From positions 4,384 to 68,383 of the forward strand of contig CABXJB010000001.1 in NCBI GenBank assembly GCA_902512415.1: a DNA stretch of 64,000 bases, written 5' to 3'. The DNA is from an uncultured Alphaproteobacteria bacterium (GTDB lineage: Bacteria; Pseudomonadota; Alphaproteobacteria; HIMB59; GCA-002718135). Positions 3,203-27,363 of this stretch are shown piece by piece. Made by a program: the position numbers and the translations under genes. Each line of letters opens with the position of its first letter. Position 1 is the first letter of the stretch. The notes under the pieces were generated by a model. The model did no database searches. It saw only the letters and a list, made by a program, of their open reading frames with translations, and was not told the origin of the DNA.

Positions 3203-4183
3203 TTAACCACAATTCACACAACATTGATCAACCCAGTGACCTGGACTAACTTCTATTAAACCCATTTCAATACTTCCTTCTTTACACTCATGGGTAGGAT
3301 CTGGGCATCTTGTTCTAAACACACAACCTGTTGGTCTATCCAGAGGACTTGGAATATTACCTGGTATAGGTTTTAATGGTGCATCAAGATTATTAATATC
3401 AGGCAGTGCATTTAATAAACCCCTTGTGTAAGGATGTTTCGGATTTTTTAGAATGTCATTGACTGGACCTCTCTCAACAACACTTCCAAGATACATAACT
3501 GCTACATCATCTGCTACTTGCGCAATAACACCAAGATCATGAGTGATGAATATAACACCCATATTGAATTCTTTAATAATATCTTTCATTAGGTTAATTA
3601 CCTGTGCCTGAATGGTAACATCAAGAGCAGTTGTTGGTTCATCTGCTAATAATAATTTTGGCATAGTAGATAATGCCATAGCTATCATCGCACGTTGTCT
3701 CATGCCCCCAGATAATTCAAAAGCATACTGATTAAATCTCTTTTCAGCATCAGCTATACCAACCCTTATTAACATATCTATTGATATATTTTTAGCCTCT
3801 CCTTTGCCCATAGTTTTATGAAGCATTAATTGTTCAACCATTTGATGACCTATTTTAATTGCTGGCGCAAAACTTGCCATAGGTTCTTGAAAAATCATTG
3901 ATACTTTGCCTCCCCTGATTTTTTTTAAATCATTTTTAGAAGTAAATTTTATAACATTTTCATCATCAATTATTATTTCTGCATTTTCATTATAAATTGT
4001 ATTTCCTGGGTTTAGCTGCATTATAGATTTTGCTGTAACTGACTTACCAGATCCTGACTCACCTACAATTCCCAAAACCTTTCCTTGATCCAATGTAAGG
4101 GAAACATTCTCTATTGCTGTAATACGTCCTTCATCAGTATCAAACTTAACATCTAAATTATTTATTTCTAATAAATGACTCAT
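3203..4183 (-). CDS. oligopeptide/dipeptide-type ABC transporter ATP-binding protein (OppD/DppD-like) with Cys-rich C-terminal tail
   Basis: Walker A GESGSGKSV, signature LSGGMRQR, Walker B LLLADEPTTALD; C-terminal oligopeptide-ABC domain. Confidence 0.9.
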   Translation of the reverse strand: MSHLLEINNLDVKFDTDEGRITAIENVSLTLDQGKVLGIVGESGSGKSVTAKSIMQLNPGNTIYNENAEIIIDDENVIKFTSKNDLKKIRGGKVSMIFQEPMASFAPAIKIGHQMVEQLMLHKTMGKGEAKNISIDMLIRVGIADAEKRFNQYAFELSGGMRQRAMIAMALSTMPKLLLADEPTTALDVTIQAQVINLMKDIIKEFNMGVIFITHDLGVIAQVADDVAVMYLGSVVERGPVNDILKNPKHPYTRGLLNALPDINNLDAPLKPIPGNIPSPLDRPTGCVFRTRCPDPTHECKEGSIEMGLIEVSPGHWVDQCCVNCG

Positions 4184-11249: not shown

Positions 11250-11262
11250 TTTCTAAAAATAT

Positions 11263-11276
11263 TTGATCTAGATCAA
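11263..11276. promoter_or_regulatory. FNR-type box TTGATctagATCAA (orphan, between convergent genes)
   Basis: Perfect palindrome read directly. TACAAT at 11298-11303 sits where a class II -10 would be. Confidence 0.5.
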
Positions 11277-11345
11277 TTAGTTTTAAGTTTAATAGATTAC
11301 AATTAATACCTTAAACATTTAGTTTCTTCCTATTAAGTTAAAGAT

Positions 11346-11385
11346 TTAACCCCCATCCTTTCTTATGGGGGTTAATTTTATTTAT
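11346..11385. terminator. rho-independent terminator hairpin, possibly bidirectional
   Basis: Stem ttaaccccca (11346-11355) / tgggggttaa (11366-11375), followed on the plus strand by ttttatttat. It also lies immediately 3' of the nirK stop on the minus strand. Confidence 0.65.
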
Positions 11386-12598
11386 CTACTAAGCTCAAAA
11401 GATGTTGCTCATAAGCATTCCAATCAATATCACTTGGCTCTTTTATCTGTTTCATTAAATCATCGTTCCATTTACCATTTACTTGTACTTCTGCTTTTGC
11501 TCCTAAAATAAATGCTTCAATTAAATTATGATTTAAGTACACATAAGTACCTGGTTGATGAAAAGTATATATTGCAGCAGCAGCAGCTCCACCCGGAACA
11601 AACCAAGTTTCCAAATTTGTTCTAGGCGGATCATTGAATGATCCGTTGGGCCATACAAAATCTCCATGTCCGCCAATAAGATGAGGTCGTGTATCTCTAT
11701 TTGATTGAGCATGGATAAATAAAACAGTTTCACCGACCTCGGCAGTCATAGCATTTTCTCCAGTTAAAGAATCAACTGCACCATTAAACACAACATGACT
11801 TGGCGTAAGTGTTCTCATTACCTCTAATGTTTCACTATAACCATCACCTGGTTCCTTAAAAATTTTATAATTTCCATATTCATCTTTTGGAATATAAAAA
11901 TCTTGCTCTCCAATATAATATGCTTTGTCATATCTTATTGGATTGCCATCACGGTCTTTTAATCCATCACGTGGTAATACCATCACAGCACCATTCATAC
12001 CTTTAACGACGTGCCATGGCACCATAGCTCCTCCTGGAGCACAATGATAAACAAAAACTCCTGGCTTAGTAGCTTTCCAACGCAAAATTACTTCCTCACC
12101 TGGTAATACATGTGTTAAACCACCACCTCCAAGAGCTCCTGTAGAAGCATGAAAATCTATATTATGTTGAAAATTATTCTTCTCAGGATTAATCAAAGTT
12201 AATTCTATATAATCCCCTTCATGAACAACAATTATAGGACCTGGAACAGAATCATTAAATGCAAATACTCGAAACTGAGTTCCTTCATCATCAATTTCAA
12301 TAATCTTTTCTTCAATTATCATAGTTACTTTAACTACTTTAGAACTTTGTCCAGCTACCTGATCATGAATAGGAACAAAAGGAGGGGGTAATAACTTTTG
12401 AACAACAACTGGAAGGTTATCAGCCGTATCAGCATTGGCTTTAAAAGAAACTAAAAAAACAATACTGAGAAAAATAACTAATATAAAAAATGCTACTTTG
12501 TTACTAATATTTAGAAAGTCTAAAGAAAACTCTTGCTCTTCAAATTTATCCCATTCATCTTTTTTATTTTCTAAATCAAGTTTATAGTTAATATTCAT
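11378..12598 (-). CDS. nirK: copper-containing nitrite reductase
   Basis: Cu ligand motifs [22 protein letters not shown] and [11 protein letters not shown] prefer ATG 12598, preceded by AGGAGA (12610-12605), over the GTG at 12622 in the ORF track. Confidence 0.9.
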
Positions 12599-12646
12599 AT
12601 CTATTCTCCTTTTTGTAAACACTTACAAGCAAGTAGAGAGATTTTT

Positions 12647-12736
12647 TTGATTAATATCAAAATGCAATCATTTTTGATTAAGATCAAAATTATTTTTGAT
12701 TTGAATCAAACTGAGCATTATTTTGATTAAAATCAA
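12647..12736. promoter_or_regulatory. array of four FNR-type boxes in the divergent nirK / pdxH-like control region
   Basis: TTGATtaatATCAA 12647-12660, TTGATtaagATCAA 12674-12687, TTGATttgaATCAA 12696-12709, TTGATtaaaATCAA 12723-12736. Confidence 0.8.
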
Positions 12737-12768
12737 ATTCTTTCTCCTGAGCAATGATATAAAAAATT

Positions 12769-13386
12769 GTGAACTTTGATCTTGATAAACAAATTTTAAT
12801 TGAAGAAAATAAACAAGGTCCTTTTGAATTATTCTCAAGTTGGTACAAATCGGCAGTAAATAATGAAATTAATAATCCTAATGCAATGAATGTCGCTACT
12901 GTATCAACAAATATGCAGCCTACATCTAGAATGATATTATTAAAAGAATATGATGAATCAGGATTTATATTTAATACAAATATTGAAAGTAATAAATCTA
13001 GAGAAATCGAATCGAATAATCTAGTAGCACTTAATTTTCATTGGAAAAGTCTTCATCGACAAGTGCGAATTCAAGGAAAGGCAGTATTATTAAGTGACAA
13101 AAAAGCAAATCAGTGTTTTAATGATAGACCGAGAGAATCTAAAATAGCTGCATGGGCATCTAAACAATCTGAATTATTACCTAATAGAAAATTGCTTAAT
13201 AAAAGAGTTCATTATTATGAAAATTTTTTTAGTAATATTTCAGTAGAACGACCAAGTTTTTGGTCGGGATATAAAGTCATACCACAATACTTTGAATTCT
13301 GGTGGGATGTAAAATTTAGGCTTCATTATAGAGTTGTTTTTAATAAAAATAAAAAAAAATGGGATAAACATATGCTTTATCCTTGA
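12769..13386 (+). CDS. pdxH: pyridoxamine 5'-phosphate oxidase (PNPOx) family protein
   Basis: 205 aa; PNAMNVATV near the N-terminus and the C-terminal FEFWWDVKFRLHYRVVF...LYP pattern typical of PdxH; GTG start. Confidence 0.75.
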   Translation: MNFDLDKQILIEENKQGPFELFSSWYKSAVNNEINNPNAMNVATVSTNMQPTSRMILLKEYDESGFIFNTNIESNKSREIESNNLVALNFHWKSLHRQVRIQGKAVLLSDKKANQCFNDRPRESKIAAWASKQSELLPNRKLLNKRVHYYENFFSNISVERPSFWSGYKVIPQYFEFWWDVKFRLHYRVVFNKNKKKWDKHMLYP

Positions 13387-13399
13387 TAAAGAATTTGAG

Positions 13400-14029
13400 A
13401 TGTTTGAGTTAGTAAATAATAATTTAGATAAAGTACAATTTGAAACCAAACCATTTAACCATTGGGTTTATGATAAAGTTTTGCCAGAAAATATTGCTAA
13501 TGATCTTTCTGATTTGCCTATTTTACCTTCTTCAATAGATAAAAATAGTGGAAAACGTGATACATATAATACTTCTAGATTATTTTTTAATAAAAGAAAT
13601 TGTAATAAATATTCTTTATTTCGTGATATCGTTATTATTTTTAATAATCTAAAAACAATTATAAAACTTAGTCAAATATGTGGAAGAGATTTATCAAAAG
13701 GTAAGCTAAGAATTGAATATACTTTAGATACCGGGGATTTCTGGTTGGAGCCACATCTTGATATAAAGGAAAAATTATTAACTTTTCTAATTTATTTATC
13801 GAAAGAAAAAGGATCAAATGAATGGGGAACTACCATTTATAATCCAGATTTAAGTGTTTATAAAAAAGTACCCTACAAATTAAATTTAGGCTTTATGTTT
13901 ATGGCTGGAAAAAATACTTGGCATGGTGTGCCAAAACAAAAGATAAAAGGAATTAGAAAATCATTAATAATTAATTATGTTAATAATAATTGGAAAAATA
14001 TGGATGAGCTTTCTACATCTTTCTATTAA
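13400..14029 (+). CDS. 2OG-Fe(II) oxygenase-like protein (putative)
   Basis: H-x-D (EPHLDIKE) and a distal His (NTWHGVP) in a double-stranded beta-helix-like context. ATG 13400 chosen because the track start 13334 overlaps the pdxH-like gene. Confidence 0.45.
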   Translation: MFELVNNNLDKVQFETKPFNHWVYDKVLPENIANDLSDLPILPSSIDKNSGKRDTYNTSRLFFNKRNCNKYSLFRDIVIIFNNLKTIIKLSQICGRDLSKGKLRIEYTLDTGDFWLEPHLDIKEKLLTFLIYLSKEKGSNEWGTTIYNPDLSVYKKVPYKLNLGFMFMAGKNTWHGVPKQKIKGIRKSLIINYVNNNWKNMDELSTSFY

Positions 14030-14032
14030 TTT

Positions 14033-14821
14033 TTAATAATAATTACTTAGTGAATTTTTCATTTCCTTACTTAGTGCAAGCCATTCTTGAGCATAGATTT
14101 CATCTTGTTTATTTAGAGGTTCCCAAATTTTACCTCTGAACCACGGACCACCTCTTGTAAAATGAACATTTTTTGCATTTAAAGATTCAGGAGAATGACC
14201 ATCTAACCAATTCCATTCTTCATGTAATTTTCCTATTTCATTATCTTTTAACCACATAAAGTTATGCAACCATAATCCAGACTTTGTATTTATATCATCA
14301 ACTGTATAATTATTATGTCCTTTGTGACTGCAGTTAAACATTATAACAGATGACCAATTTTTTCGTGAATATTGATATTGTTCATTGCCGTACATTTTAT
14401 GTTTTTCTGTTGGAGCATAATTATGTTTTACACAATAAATCGCATACTTTGGATCGTTATATTCCTTAAATAAATCCAATGGATCTGATCTAAAAAACAT
14501 ATCGCAGTCCATAAAGAGGGCCCATCCTTCTAATCTGTGAAGAAAAGGTGTTAAAAAACGTGAAAAAGAAAAATCAGTAGCAAAAGGTTTTTCATCAAAA
14601 ATATCACGGTGTTGCAGATCATTATTATTTATTGGTTTTGGTAATGATGAACTTCCAAGTTGCCAAGCACGTCGATATAAACCAATTCTTCTTAATTGAC
14701 TCTGCTTAATAGGGTATACATTAAGTGGTCCTGAAGCGTATTTATATGCTGAATATTTTAATACTTTATACGCAAGATCTTCTCTTGGATCATATCCAAT
14801 ATAGATGGTAGGTATATCCAT
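14033..14821 (-). CDS. nucleotide-diphospho-sugar transferase-like protein (DxD motif), function unknown
   Basis: MDCDMFF DxD-type motif. ATG 14821 (MDIPTIYIGYDP) abuts the stop of the upstream gene at 14823; the longer track start lies inside that gene. Confidence 0.4.
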   Translation of the reverse strand: MDIPTIYIGYDPREDLAYKVLKYSAYKYASGPLNVYPIKQSQLRRIGLYRRAWQLGSSSLPKPINNNDLQHRDIFDEKPFATDFSFSRFLTPFLHRLEGWALFMDCDMFFRSDPLDLFKEYNDPKYAIYCVKHNYAPTEKHKMYGNEQYQYSRKNWSSVIMFNCSHKGHNNYTVDDINTKSGLWLHNFMWLKDNEIGKLHEEWNWLDGHSPESLNAKNVHFTRGGPWFRGKIWEPLNKQDEIYAQEWLALSKEMKNSLSNYY

Positions 14822-14822
14822 A

Positions 14823-15446
14823 CTATTTGAAATCATTATATTTTGAAAATTTATCAATATTAAAGCTAATAATAACTCTATCTTCTTTTGAAAGGTTAGG
14901 TTCAACCCAATGCTTTACATAACTAGGAAACATAGCTAATAATCCTGTTTTTGGCTCAATAGCAACTTGTTGTTCATTTAGTGAATTTACCTTATCGCAA
15001 ATAGGATGATAATATAATGAAGTCTCTCTTGGGTCTTCAGCTATGAATCTACCTCCATTTTTTGGAAATTTTACATAATAAGCTGCACTAATTAAATTAT
15101 TACTATGTATATGTGATTGATTGCAAGCTAGTGGAGGGTTAATAATAGCCCAAGTATTAGTAATTTTATAATGGTGGCGCGTTTTATTCCAACTCATATC
15201 TTTTGATACCTGTGCCAAATTAGAGGAGATTTTATTAAAAAAATTCTGATGTGGTTGAGATTTTGTAATATCAATATTTTTGCTATGCCAACCCAGCATA
15301 TTGGACCTTTTAATTCCTTTTGGATCTTTTTTTCTTAAATCATATATATATTTTAATAAATCTTTATTTATTTTTGACACATTGTCTAACGGCGACACCC
15401 ATATAGGGGTTGCAAATTTTTTAAGTAAATCAATTTTATTTTTCAA
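14823..15446 (-). CDS. 2OG-Fe(II) oxygenase superfamily protein (TIGR02466-like), function unknown
   Basis: HIHSNN...AAYYV and the C-terminal MFPSYVKHWVEPN...RVIISFN pattern that I associate with this family. Confidence 0.5.
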   Translation of the reverse strand: MKNKIDLLKKFATPIWVSPLDNVSKINKDLLKYIYDLRKKDPKGIKRSNMLGWHSKNIDITKSQPHQNFFNKISSNLAQVSKDMSWNKTRHHYKITNTWAIINPPLACNQSHIHSNNLISAAYYVKFPKNGGRFIAEDPRETSLYYHPICDKVNSLNEQQVAIEPKTGLLAMFPSYVKHWVEPNLSKEDRVIISFNIDKFSKYNDFK

Positions 15447-15466
15447 ATTTTTATAAGAAATTATGA

Positions 15467-15667
15467 TTATGGTTTCGAAAATTTATCAAAGTAAAAATCT
15501 CTTTCAACATCTGATGTTTTATTATTTATAAGATGTTGATCCCTTATTTGTAATTTTTCTAGTTTAGAAATAAAGGGAGGAGAAGAACGCCATCCATAAG
15601 AGATTAATTTATCATCTTGAGTTTTATATAATGTTAAAAATCTAAATTTATTAATTCTTTTTTTCAT
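15467..15667 (-). CDS. small hypothetical protein (66 aa)
   Basis: ATG 15667 is preceded by AGGAGA (15679-15674). It is first in a three-gene minus-strand unit behind an FNR box. Confidence 0.4.
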   Translation of the reverse strand: MKKRINKFRFLTLYKTQDDKLISYGWRSSPPFISKLEKLQIRDQHLINNKTSDVERDFYFDKFSKP

Positions 15668-15713
15668 ATATTTTCTCCTTTCTATTAATTTACAACAATA
15701 GAAAAAAGAATTT

Positions 15714-15754
15714 TTGATCAACATCAATTTAAGTTTTAATTTGATCTGTATCAA
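15714..15754. promoter_or_regulatory. two FNR-type boxes (divergent promoters)
   Basis: TTGATcaacATCAA 15714-15727 and TTGATctgtATCAA 15741-15754; centres 27 bp apart. Confidence 0.75.
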
Positions 15755-15794
15755 ATTATTTTATTATTATTATAAAGAGAATAAAATAATAAAA

Positions 15795-15884
15795 ATGAAC
15801 ATTAGAGTATCTGGTTTAACGTCTGGTATTTTAGGTGCCTTGTATGTTTTAATCATTACATGGTGGTTAATAATTTATGATTAA
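15795..15884 (+). CDS. candidate 29-aa hydrophobic micro-protein
   Basis: Own translation MNIRVSGLTSGILGALYVLIITWWLIIYD. ATG is 47.5 bp from the centre of box 15741-15754. Below the ORF-track length cut-off. Confidence 0.25.
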   Translation: MNIRVSGLTSGILGALYVLIITWWLIIYD

Positions 15885-16009
15885 TAGAAACTATGTATAA
15901 GTAAATAAAAAAAAATATATAAAACTACAAATATCAAAACTGCAATTGCAAATTCAAAAAAACCCGAGCTTTGATGTTCATCATTATTAATGTTATGATT
16001 ATTATTCAT
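15881..16009 (-). CDS. candidate 42-aa single-TM micro-protein
   Basis: Own translation MNNNHNINNDEHQSSGFFEFAIAVLIFVVLYIFFYLLIHSFY. ATG is 41.5 bp from the centre of box 16044-16057. Confidence 0.25.
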   Translation of the reverse strand: MNNNHNINNDEHQSSGFFEFAIAVLIFVVLYIFFYLLIHSFY

Positions 16010-16043
16010 AAGTATTCAAATACAAACTATAGAAATTTTTGAT

Positions 16044-16112
16044 TTGATTTTGATCAAAGAAGTAGTTATTTTGATTTGAGTCAATTCTTCTTAATAATTT
16101 GATTTAAATCAA
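16044..16112. promoter_or_regulatory. three FNR-type boxes
   Basis: TTGATtttgATCAA 16044-16057, TTGATttgaGTCAA 16071-16084 (1 mismatch), TTGATttaaATCAA 16099-16112; centre spacing 27 and 28 bp. Confidence 0.75.
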
Positions 16113-16145
16113 ATTATACTTCTTTATTTTTTGTATTATGAGTTA

Positions 16146-16700
16146 ATGAATTACTTTCAAGCAATGTTATGTCCTTCAGTAATTTTAAAGACAAGAATAG
16201 GTGATGATAAAATACTTGGTGGAGGTTGTGCAATAGGAGGCACATGGAAAGACATTAACACTGATGTATTATTTAAAGATAAGAGGATAGTGATATTTTC
16301 TTTACCTGGCGCATACACCCCAACCTGCTCATCACAACAGGTACCAGGATATGAAGAAAAGTATGATGAGTTAAGAAAATTTGTACATGAAGTTTATTGC
16401 GTATCAGTAAATGATGCCTTTGTAATGAATGCGTGGTTTCGAGATCAAAAAATATACAAAGTAAAGCCAATTGGAGATGGAGAAGGTAAATTTACAAAAG
16501 GCATGAATATGCTTGTCAATAAACCAAAACAAGGATTTGGTATGCGTTCGTGGAGATATTCAGCTCTAGTAGAAGATGGTAAAGTTATTAAATTATTTAT
16601 TGAGGAAGGAAAAAATGACAACAGTAATGATAATGATCCTTTTAAGGTATCAGATGCTGATACAATGCTTCGTTTTCTTCAAGAAAGAATGAATTATTAA
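16146..16700 (+). CDS. peroxiredoxin, Prx5 (type 5 / AhpC-TSA) subfamily
   Basis: Active-site motif PGAYTPTCSSQQVPGY. Start is uncertain (TTG 16131, ATG 16146 or ATG 16164); 16146 is chosen from promoter geometry (TGTATTAT extended -10 at 16132-16139). Confidence 0.85.
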   Translation: MNYFQAMLCPSVILKTRIGDDKILGGGCAIGGTWKDINTDVLFKDKRIVIFSLPGAYTPTCSSQQVPGYEEKYDELRKFVHEVYCVSVNDAFVMNAWFRDQKIYKVKPIGDGEGKFTKGMNMLVNKPKQGFGMRSWRYSALVEDGKVIKLFIEEGKNDNSNDNDPFKVSDADTMLRFLQERMNY

Positions 16701-16702
16701 TA

Positions 16703-16873
16703 TTAGTGTACGGCAGTTATTTTTTCTCTTCCAGAAAATATGTTTTTCCTGATTTCTGTTATTTTTTCTTGAGAATAACCGTGTCCGATCACTAAGTGTT
16801 TATCAGAAAATGAGACTGATCTAGTTACAATTACTAAGAGGATAATGATTATGATTAAAGGAATATATTTCAT
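16703..16873 (-). CDS. small membrane-anchored/secreted hypothetical protein (56 aa)
   Basis: MKYIPLIIIIILLVIVTRSV... from ATG 16873. The longer track ORF would run through the FNR boxes. Confidence 0.4.
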   Translation of the reverse strand: MKYIPLIIIIILLVIVTRSVSFSDKHLVIGHGYSQEKITEIRKNIFSGREKITAVH

Positions 16874-16906
16874 ATTTTGTGTATACAAAAAATTTATGTT
16901 TGAGAT

Positions 16907-16947
16907 TTGATTTAAATCAAAAAAGGATTTGTTTTGATACAAATCAA
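16907..16947. promoter_or_regulatory. two FNR-type boxes (divergent promoters)
   Basis: TTGATttaaATCAA 16907-16920 and TTGATacaaATCAA 16934-16947; centres 27 bp apart. Confidence 0.75.
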
Positions 16948-16981
16948 TTATCAAGAATAAAAATATATTAAGTTAATCTAT

Positions 16982-17170
16982 ATGCTTTCACTCCAAGCAA
17001 TCATTGCCTTAACATATGTTCCTTCTGTGCCACTCATTGCGTTTTCTGTAGTTGCGGGCATGGAAAATAATCCTAAAGCACAGAAATGGTACGGTTTTTT
17101 TGGGGGTGTTTTTTTTGTTATTGCTACTGTTGCCTATGTTTTTTTTCTTGGTGAACTTTTATCAAACTAG
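16982..17170 (+). CDS. small two-TM membrane protein (62 aa), function unknown
   Basis: Two hydrophobic segments (LIAFSVVAG, GGVFFVIATVAYVFFLG). ATG is 41.5 bp from the box centre. Confidence 0.4.
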   Translation: MLSLQAIIALTYVPSVPLIAFSVVAGMENNPKAQKWYGFFGGVFFVIATVAYVFFLGELLSN

Positions 17171-17664
17171 GGTGAGAGATTAATTTGTAAACAAGTAGGG
17201 TTTATTCTTTTAGCGCCTGCCTCTTGTAGAAATAATGCGTACCAATCATTTTCTTTTATATCATAGATTTTAATTGTTGAACATTTTAGATCTATTCCTA
17301 ATCTAATTATATACTCTATAAACTGTTTCAATACTTTCTGACGCCCAATTGGTCCAGGAATAATAATATGCTCAATTATTAATTTTTTTTTGTGATCTGC
17401 ACAGCAAGTAAAAAGGCCATGAATATAATCATTGGTGCTTCTGGCAATAATAATATCTTGAAAAGTAGTTTGCTGTTTTGCATATTGCTTTAATTTATAA
17501 GGAGACATATTGCTCCATAATTTTAAAAAATTATCTATAGTGCAATTTGGTTTATGTTCTTGAAAAAGAGAAAAAGTTTTACTGATATGACAGCGACCCA
17601 TTGGTGTAATAAGGAGTTTATTTAGAGTTTCATATTTATCTTTAGCTACACGTTCTACTGTCAT
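17167..17664 (-). CDS. hypothetical protein (165 aa)
   Basis: Intact ORF convergent with the 62-aa gene (4-nt overlap); no motif I can assign. ATG is 40.5 bp from the centre of box 17698-17711. Confidence 0.5.
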   Translation of the reverse strand: MTVERVAKDKYETLNKLLITPMGRCHISKTFSLFQEHKPNCTIDNFLKLWSNMSPYKLKQYAKQQTTFQDIIIARSTNDYIHGLFTCCADHKKKLIIEHIIIPGPIGRQKVLKQFIEYIIRLGIDLKCSTIKIYDIKENDWYALFLQEAGAKRINPTCLQINLSP

Positions 17665-17697
17665 AATTTGAATTTACACGGTTATAAGTTTAAAACT

Positions 17698-17711
17698 TTG
17701 ATTTAGATCAA
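17698..17711. promoter_or_regulatory. FNR-type box shared by the divergent 165-aa gene and the fnr-like gene
   Basis: TTGATttagATCAA read directly. Confidence 0.7.
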
Positions 17712-17750
17712 TTCCTGCTAGAAATTTATTTGTTAAAAGAATACACTTTA

Positions 17751-18485
17751 ATGGAGCATAGAATGGAACCAGTTGCAAGTTGTACAACAAAGAATAAAAA
17801 CAATAATCATAGGTGCGCTCAATGCTCTGTACGCCTAATTGCTTTTTGTGGTATTCTAGATGACAGTGATATTATACAATTAGAAGCAATATCTAAAAAT
17901 ATATCTTTTCCCAAAGGAACAAATATTTTCTTTCAAGGTGATCAAGTTAAAACATTCTTCAATATTAAACAAGGAAGTATAAAAATATACAAACTTTCAC
18001 ATGATGGAAGAAAACAAATTGTAGGTTTTTTGTATCCTGGGGATTTTTTAGGTATGTCAGATCAAGAAGTTTATACTTACAATGCAGAAGCTTTAGAAGA
18101 TACGCAACTGTGTCAATTCAATAAAATAGTTCTAGAGAATTTTTTTCTTAAATTTCCTAAGATTGAAAATAAAATACTTAATTTGGTTAATCATGAACTA
18201 GCAGTTGCGCAGGATCAAATTTTTCTTTTGGGAAAATATTCTGCGAGAGAACGCTTATTACAATTTTTCTTGAACATATCGAATCAGCGTGAGAAACTAG
18301 GATGGGGAGGCAACCCTATTCGTCTCAGTATGCCAAGATCTGATATAGCCAACTATTTAGGACTGACCATTGAGACAGTTAGCAGAACGCTTGCCGATCT
18401 TAAGAACGAGCAAATTATTAAAATGTTAGGGACTCAAGATATTTTTTTGAATAATAAGGATGAAATTCCACAGTATTTGTCCTAG
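17751..18485 (+). CDS. fnr: CRP/FNR-family transcription regulator, FnrL/FnrN-type (putative [4Fe-4S] O2 sensor)
   Basis: N-terminal C-x2-C-x7-C (CAQCSVRLIAFC) plus a further Cys upstream and a central Cys (TQLCQF); cNMP-like beta-roll; HTH with the ETVSR recognition motif. Start may be 17730, 17751 or 17763. Confidence 0.85.
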   Translation: MEHRMEPVASCTTKNKNNNHRCAQCSVRLIAFCGILDDSDIIQLEAISKNISFPKGTNIFFQGDQVKTFFNIKQGSIKIYKLSHDGRKQIVGFLYPGDFLGMSDQEVYTYNAEALEDTQLCQFNKIVLENFFLKFPKIENKILNLVNHELAVAQDQIFLLGKYSARERLLQFFLNISNQREKLGWGGNPIRLSMPRSDIANYLGLTIETVSRTLADLKNEQIIKMLGTQDIFLNNKDEIPQYLS

Positions 18486-18566
18486 ATCATTAGTTTATAT
18501 AGTAGCTAATTAATCTTTGATATTTGGGTAAAGAGCTTGAATGGAGAAATTTAATTAATTGGGATA

Positions 18567-27339: not shown

Positions 27340-27363
27340 TAATATTGTGATATACTACATTGA

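Follow-up and report, generated by a model that had tools for sequence, protein, structure and literature searches.

Promoters in a compact gene island of an uncultured alphaproteobacterium combine an FNR-type box, a -10 element at a fixed offset from it and, in six genes, a start codon placed where RNA polymerase would be expected to start. The island lies in a 64,000-nt stretch of contig CABXJB010000001.1 (assembly GCA_902512415.1, positions 4,384 to 68,383), referred to here as the window, whose G+C content is about 30%. The transcripts of the six genes, that is pdxH, the peroxiredoxin gene and the open reading frames (ORFs) of 42, 56, 62 and 165 aa, most likely begin at the start codon or within one base of it, as judged from the sequence, and it is probable that all six are transcribed as strictly leaderless mRNAs. 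A first-pass annotation of the window had proposed leaderless transcripts for most genes of the island from the distances between boxes and start codons. The fixed -10 offset, the start positions and the conserved spacing described below are in agreement with this proposal, and its "most genes" amounts to six of nine to ten transcription units when operon-internal genes are left out.

The island encodes a copper nitrite reductase, nirK (TIGR02376), a PdxH-type oxidase (TIGR00558), two 2-oxoglutarate (2OG)-Fe(II) oxygenase-like proteins, a Prx5-like peroxiredoxin (Prx), several small ORFs, a 165-aa protein without family match and a Crp/Fnr regulator. The window is assigned to SAR11 (Pelagibacteraceae), and the island is most likely a compact FNR regulon of a lineage from oxygen-minimum zones (OMZ). 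SAR11 bacteria are among the most abundant organisms of the ocean, and nitrogen loss is in part due to their low-oxygen lineages.

FNR boxes and their regulator

Perfect TTGAT-N4-ATCAA boxes (TTGATNNNNATCAA) occur twelve times in the 64 kb, all within 11263-17711, against an expectation of 0.53 +/- 0.74 (maximum 4) obtained by shuffling. A thirteenth box with one mismatch is located at 16071-16084. Boxes of this type were also found in all related islands; the relatives are contigs labelled L001, L003, L004, L005, L015, L026, L028, L033, L036, L039 and others. The regulator gene stands at the end of the island:

17763-18485, + strand: FNR/FnrL-type regulator of 240 aa, with cysteine ligands and recognition helix

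Its closest solved relative is the FNR of Aliivibrio fischeri (E = 3e-37). The Cys-x2-Cys-x7-Cys motif, which has the FnrL/FnrN spacing, and the central cysteine (LCQF) align with those of the Aliivibrio protein, and the recognition helix ETVSR is aligned to its ETISR. The best NCBIfam matches are FnrL and Fnr, each below the equivalog cut-off. By these sequence features, the protein is an FNR-type oxygen sensor that should be able to read TTGAT half-sites. The start codon of fnr had earlier been placed at ATG 17751, which is ruled out because this codon is not conserved in the relatives. The start is ATG 17763 instead, with a GGAG Shine-Dalgarno (SD) sequence and a distance of 58.5 from the box.

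A -10 element at a fixed offset

Every outward-facing box was aligned together with its downstream gene; the set comprises 31 different promoter sequences that represent 10 gene families in 7 lineages. Positions are counted from the first base of the box, and the box centre corresponds to the box start plus 6.5. The 14-bp box is followed by 21 nt and then by a near-invariant TA (-12T/-11A) at positions 36-37, usually inside TGTAnnnT. T36 and A37 are present in 30 of the 31 sequences, and in the remaining one they are shifted by one base. With the composition of the island intergenic regions, a TA at a fixed offset is expected about 0.16 times per family, which gives p ~1e-8 over the 10 families. 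The distance from -11A to the box centre is 29.5 nt, the geometry of class II promoters. If A37 is taken as -11A, +1 therefore falls at position 48 and the box is centred at -40.5. The -10 hexamer then covers positions 36-41 and ends about 6-8 nt before the start codon, as it does at leaderless genes.

TG-extended -10 elements had also been noted in the first-pass annotation. Only the one of pdxH is canonical (TGaTATAAA), whereas TGTATTAT and similar elements carry TG at -14/-13. Most of these motifs do not match the canonical TGnTATAAT because TG abuts the hexamer.

The signal is a property of the island and not of the window at large. Among 55 first genes that lie elsewhere and lack an SD, a sample that is small and based on crude gene calls, the start is preceded by a TAnnnT ending 5-8 nt away in 1, 4, 2 and 2 cases, where the background is 2-3; of 12 box-associated starts, 11 have a TAnnnT at this distance. 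A genome-wide leaderless property of the GeneMarkS-2 group C type was rejected, as no -10 enrichment was seen in this small sample of genes outside the island.

Two loci outside the island have a comparable arrangement. At 27340-27363, only 24 nt separate two divergent starts (27339 on the - strand and 27364 on the + strand), and a TGaTATACT ends 7 nt before ATG 27364, so that the gene starting there is possibly leaderless. In parallel, a core non-island SAR11 Prx gene downstream of fur (L007, 2934-3003) has a TTGACA-N16-TATAAA-like site that ends 8 nt before the ATG, and no SD. The near-leaderless geometry may thus be older than the island copy of Prx.

Start codons and conserved spacing

In the set of promoter sequences, the first base of the start codon is found at position 47 (one sequence), 48 (16), 49 (9) or 50 (4). 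The 31st sequence is pdxH of L036, where the gene caller placed the ATG at 45 and the conserved MNL ATG is at 48. All of these first bases are purines (25 A, 6 G), and 22 of the 31 are preceded by a pyrimidine. In the window, the six genes with close starts are arranged as follows, with distances measured from the box centre:

12723-12771, + strand: pdxH promoter and start; box 12723-12736, extended -10 TGaTATAAA 12755-12763, GTG 12769 (39.5); predicted leaderless
16009-16057, - strand: promoter and start of the 42-aa ORF; box 16044-16057, -10 TATTTG 16022-16017, ATG 16009 (41.5); predicted leaderless
16099-16148, + strand: Prx promoter and start; box 16099-16112, -10 TATTAT 16134-16139, ATG 16146 (40.5); predicted leaderless
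16873-16920, - strand: promoter and start of the 56-aa ORF; box 16907-16920, -10 TATACA 16885-16880, ATG 16873 (40.5); predicted leaderless
16934-16984, + strand: 62-aa membrane-protein ORF; box 16934-16947, -10 TAAGTT 16969-16974, ATG 16982 (41.5); predicted leaderless
17664-17711, - strand: 165-aa gene (GNAT-like); shared box 17698-17711, -10 TAAATT 17676-17671, ATG 17664 (40.5); predicted leaderless

The eight distances given in the first-pass annotation were all recomputed with identical results, including nirK (55.5) and the 66-aa ORF (53.5) besides the 39.5 of pdxH, the 41.5 of the 42-aa and 62-aa ORFs and the 40.5 of Prx, the 56-aa ORF and the 165-aa gene. In three genes (Prx, 56-aa and 165-aa), the first base of the start codon is itself the predicted +1. 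In the other three (42-aa, 62-aa and pdxH), the two differ by one base, and the start purine is the only pyrimidine-purine step present. Expressed as predicted +1 minus start, the six values are 0, 0, 0, +1, +1 and -1.

Several of these starts are fixed by protein conservation. For pdxH, an in-frame TAA at 12760 lies three codons upstream, the next canonical start is inside the conserved domain, and homologues begin with MNF or MNL in the same alignment column. In the same way, the N-terminus MNY[FKR]Q..CPSV of Prx is common to island-type homologues, the internal Met7 is often absent, and an in-frame TAG is found two codons upstream in L001, L015 and L026. The 165-aa homologues, down to 50% identity, all begin with M[TVS]VERVAK. 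The 42-aa and 62-aa ORFs show a coding-type substitution pattern. The weakest case is the 56-aa ORF, with modest coding constraint and a GTG at the same position in L003. Independent gene calls in L015 and L005 have identical starts.

The spacing is conserved together with the starts. Eight different versions of the Prx promoter all have 40.5, although that of L004 lies in an unrelated genomic context. The 165-aa gene starts at 40.5-42.5 in L003, L005, L033, L036 and L039, for instance at 41.5 in L033 (63% identity), at 40.5 with GTG in L036 (52%) and at 42.5 in L039 (50%), the spacers being unrelated. The distance of the 42-aa ORF is 40.5 in L003 and L028 as a result of a 1-nt deletion. Homologues of the 62-aa protein with 51-64% identity, uncalled in L033 and L039, start at 41.5 and 42.5 from a box. 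Moreover, 40.5 was found for ccoN (GTG) and the conserved MNL start of pdxH in L036, and for a cytochrome c gene (GTG) in L039.

These comparisons also correct public gene calls. In L003, Prx is truncated and fnr extended (10001, 11821), and in L033 pdxH is extended into its own -10 element (6588). The 62-aa gene was missed at 8529-8711 of L033 and at 6814-6984 of L039.

In every lineage, the 165-aa protein (17167-17664, - strand) is the divergent neighbour of fnr, and it has no Pfam or NCBIfam match. A GNAT acetyltransferase-like fold is predicted for it (AlphaFold2 (AF2) model, pLDDT 74), and Foldseek matches of this model in the PDB include GCN5, SpeG and PaiA at E ~1e-5 and a TM score of about 0.55.

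Genes with a predicted short leader

A second class of starts is located further from the box, with the same promoter elements:

12647-12660, - strand: FNR box of the nirK promoter; -10 TAAGTG 12625-12620, predicted transcription start ~12613, predicted 15-nt leader AAAAGGAGAAUAGAU, ATG 12598
15667-15727, - strand: promoter of the 66-aa ORF; box 15714-15727, -10 TAAATT 15692-15687, predicted transcription start ~15680
17698-17765, + strand: fnr promoter; shared box 17698-17711, -10 TTAAAA/TAAAAG 17733-17739, predicted transcription start ~17745

The 66-aa ORF, whose predicted leader is the 13-nt AAGGAGAAAAUAU before ATG 15667, is the first gene of an operon and is followed by a 2OG-Fe(II) oxygenase gene. 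For fnr, an 18-nt leader ACUUUAAUGGAGCAUAGA with GGAG is predicted before ATG 17763. Each of these three predicted leaders (13-18 nt) corresponds to an SD plus a spacer, and the AGGAGA described earlier upstream of nirK and of the 66-aa ORF is indeed present. In the window, this class is found at 53.5-58.5 and has an SD in three of three cases, against about 20% genome-wide.

The relatives contain the same class. The 55.5 of nirK is kept in L015, L003 and L026 (four variants in all), the 66-aa family is at 52.5-54.5, fnr at 57.5-62.5, and several L033 genes at 51.5-58.5 share the -10 position and have predicted leaders of 11-21 nt. Overall, leadered starts in relatives range from 47.5 to 80.5, with leaders of about 6-33 nt, several of them without SD. 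No start was found at 43.5-46.5. Two genes depart from their class, namely Prx of L036 at 47.5 (leader of about 6-7 nt) and pdxH of L033 at 51.5 (11-nt A-rich leader, no SD). A 29-aa ORF at 15796 is also 47.5 from a box centre, that of the inner box at 15741-15754; it was seen in the window and in L031 only, and it is doubtful as a gene.

Proposed mechanism and alternatives

At low oxygen, the [4Fe-4S]-type FNR encoded by the island itself would bind each outward-facing TTGAT-N4-ATCAA box and activate RNA polymerase in class II fashion, through the -10 element described above, with its -11A at a distance of 29.5 nt. For pdxH, Prx and the 42-, 56-, 62- and 165-aa genes, the first base of the start codon would be at the predicted +1 (+/-1), so that the six mRNAs would begin with AUG, or GUG for pdxH, and be translated as leaderless mRNAs. 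The promoters of nirK, of the 66-aa/oxygenase operon and of fnr would consist of the same module followed by a 13-18 nt leader that contains little beyond an SD and a spacer. We infer FNR dependence and the transcription start sites, like the leaderless mode of translation, from the boxes, the type of regulator, the fixed -10 element, the start codons and the conservation of spacing.

Several observations weigh against strict leaderlessness. The absence of an SD at the six close starts, which had been put forward as an argument for it, was found again and does not discriminate: GGAG, GAGG or AGGA is present upstream of the likely start in only about 12 of 62 long ORFs of the window, and since about 80% of the genes in this genome have no SD, its absence is uninformative and was rejected as evidence. 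A start site a few nucleotides upstream would still give a translatable mRNA, because short leaders without SD, as predicted for pdxH of L033 and Prx of L036, appear to work. A 5' GUG is predicted for pdxH, for the 165-aa gene of L036, for the 56-aa ORF of L003 and for ccoN and the cytochrome c gene in relatives. In E. coli, leaderless mRNAs that begin with GUG are translated poorly, although Actinobacteria do use them. Starts at position 50 require initiation 9 nt past the -10 element or a leader of 1-2 nt. For Prx, a 1-nt leader is as likely as none because the base before the ATG is also A. Conservation of the -7 T of the hexamer is weak, with 14 of 31 sequences having it. Over their first 50 nt the predicted mRNAs fold only weakly, but shuffled sequences do not differ in this, and 5' structure was rejected as a discriminator. 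Finally, a scan of JGI metagenomes with the conserved Prx pattern, together with Logan and ENA look-ups, gave DNA contigs only, all with upstream sequence.

The same points feed the strongest alternative, according to which streamlining has made these genes near-leaderless: transcription would start 1-7 nt upstream, translation would be SD-independent with A/U-rich leaders, and the spacing would reflect minimised intergenic DNA. Besides the share of genes without SD, it can draw on the predicted SD-less leaders of about 6-11 nt of Prx in L036 and pdxH in L033, and on the leaders of 1-2 nt that are permitted by starts at 49 or 50 and, at Prx, by the choice between A47 and A48. It is nevertheless unlikely. 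The distribution of starts is discontinuous, with 30 of 31 at positions 47-50 and no case in which a 3-5 nt leader would be predicted. Without exception, a purine opens the start codon at the place expected for initiation by RNA polymerase, and the spacing is kept to +/-1 nt across about 50% protein divergence.

A second alternative treats the boxes as operators or class I sites, with transcription from well upstream or by read-through, and FNR might then act as a repressor. The inner boxes are about 66-69 nt from the starts, the central one being equidistant from its two neighbours, and TTAATA-18-TATACT, a weak match, shares bases with the box of Prx. When the island was scanned for the sigma-70 consensus, however, 15 matches were obtained for 14.9 expected and no better promoters were seen upstream, and the divergent intergenic regions are just 84-135 nt long and filled by boxes. 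This alternative also leaves unexplained the invariant TA at the class II offset after every outward box, and mapped Fnr-activated promoters of alphaproteobacteria have an identical geometry. We regard it as quite improbable.

That the arrangement is a coincidence, with small ORFs that are not genes or real starts further downstream and a fit created by the selection of suitable ATGs, is very improbable. In its favour, constraint on the 56-aa ORF is weak and its frame is cut short by a stop in L005, conservation is lacking for the 29-aa ORF, and gene-caller starts differ for Prx and fnr in L003 and for pdxH in L033. Against it, conserved N-termini together with in-frame upstream stops settle where pdxH, Prx, the 62-aa ORF and the 165-aa gene begin, the independent calls in L015 and L005 agree, and a chance TA at the fixed offset in 10 families has the probability of ~1e-8 given above.

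Relation to known systems

In the alphaproteobacterium Sphingopyxis granuli TFA, differential RNA-seq located the boxes of promoters activated by FnrN at -40.5 to -42.5 (PMC7713065). This would place +1 at positions 48-50, and the starts of the island are at 39.5-42.5. More generally, the island resembles class II promoters of FNR, FnrN and FnrL, as described for E. coli FNR and Sphingopyxis, in its TTGAT-N4-ATCAA box, its Fe-S cysteines and its E--SR helix. The box replaces the -35 element, the distance from box to predicted +1 is 40.5-42.5, and fnr itself is preceded by a box. It departs from them in that six of the nine to ten units are predicted to have no transcribed sequence before the start codon, in that the distance of 29.5 from box to -11A is 1 bp shorter than in the canonical -41.5 arrangement, and in the presence of two to four closely spaced boxes (22-28 bp) between divergent genes. 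No report of FNR, FixK or FnrL promoters yielding leaderless mRNAs was found in the literature searched, nor any map of transcription start sites or leaderless transcripts in SAR11/Pelagibacter.

Leaderless mRNAs are known from Mycobacterium, Deinococcus and the genomes of GeneMarkS-2 group C, with a Pribnow box 6-8 nt upstream of the start (PMC6028130, PMC4633059, PMC4007540). The island shares with them a -10 element that ends 5-8 nt before AUG or GUG, the lack of SD and the presence of several small proteins. In those organisms leaderless genes are genome-wide and mostly have constitutive promoters, whereas the signal described here is confined to one activator-dependent regulon of an AT-rich alphaproteobacterium, the rest of the window being unenriched. 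Class II FNR promoters and leaderless mRNAs are thus both known kinds, and their regulon-wide fusion in SAR11 is a new instance.

It is possible, and we propose it tentatively, that OMZ SAR11 bacteria use an all-in-one cassette of about 50 bp (FNR box, 21 nt, TA, 10 nt, RTG), which would fuse activator site, core promoter and start codon and be reused across the regulon in two forms, either leaderless or with a 13-18 nt leader made of an SD only. In one 84-nt gap, a single box may even serve the leaderless genes on both of its sides. If this were true, an inducible regulon would have lost its 5' untranslated regions (UTRs) through genome streamlining, and the anoxia response of one of the ocean's most abundant bacteria would lead by default to leaderless translation. 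The model assigns boxes to genes, predicts transcript starts to the nucleotide and indicates which small ORFs are real, besides correcting the gene calls of fnr and Prx in L003, of pdxH in L033 and of the 62-aa genes in L033 and L039. If confirmed, it would represent a clean natural case of activator-dependent promoters leading to leaderless mRNAs in an alphaproteobacterium, and it would indicate that the loss of 5' UTRs can be regulon-specific and not genome-wide.

Inner and orphan boxes

The remaining boxes of the window are the following:

12674-12687 and 12696-12709: inner boxes, no -10 at the canonical offset
15741-15754: inner box, no canonical -10
16071-16084: central one-mismatch box, 68.5 from both the Prx start and the 42-aa start
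11263-11303, + strand: perfect orphan box in the region where nirK and a metE-like gene converge; TACAAT (11298-11303) follows at the canonical offset

The fixed TA is missing after inner boxes and in inward directions. A spacing of 27-28 bp puts adjacent boxes on roughly opposite faces of the helix, and the inner boxes may serve co-operative binding or damping. The nirK-pdxH intergenic region (12647-12736) contains four boxes, of which the first pair is a module of the L015 type and the second pair one of the L003 type, in tandem; in relatives, this region has two boxes only. No ORF was found downstream of the orphan box at 11263, from which a transcript starting at about 11310 and running antisense into the 3' end of nirK is predicted. 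This box is degenerate in L001 and L003, with one mismatch.

In L036, an 84-nt divergent region (4075-4158) has a single perfect box exactly midway, 42.5 from the starts of both a DUF2061 gene and a 169-aa gene, and one FNR dimer might serve two promoters there. This single-box locus ties the regulon to nirS-like, ccoNOQP and ClpB genes.

The island in related genomes

The region 11260-18489 has 92-96% identity with L001, a contig of the metagenome-assembled genome (MAG) 'Pelagibacteraceae bacterium SI047_bin126' from Saanich Inlet. Regions with nirK and crp-fnr in SAR11, Saanich Inlet MAGs among them, have been described (PMC12816887, Microb Genom 2026). The likeness lies in nirK, crp-fnr, Fe(II)/2OG oxygenase genes and low-oxygen water, and low-oxygen expression was deduced there solely from the presence of crp-fnr. 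A term search of that article gave neither 'promoter' nor 'leaderless', the only match of 'binding site' being the copper sites of NirK. In the island itself, no Rfam family was found in the intergenic regions at E <= 0.1, and no terminator was found by the scan.

The flanks of the island differ between the window, L015-L024 and L003, where it adjoins VapE/DUF5906 primase-like genes. Finally, two tandem copies of the entire island, repeated at about 8.1 kb, are present on an ENA contig (L019, 365-15512). They may stem from a circular or excised element, from a true duplication or from misassembly.

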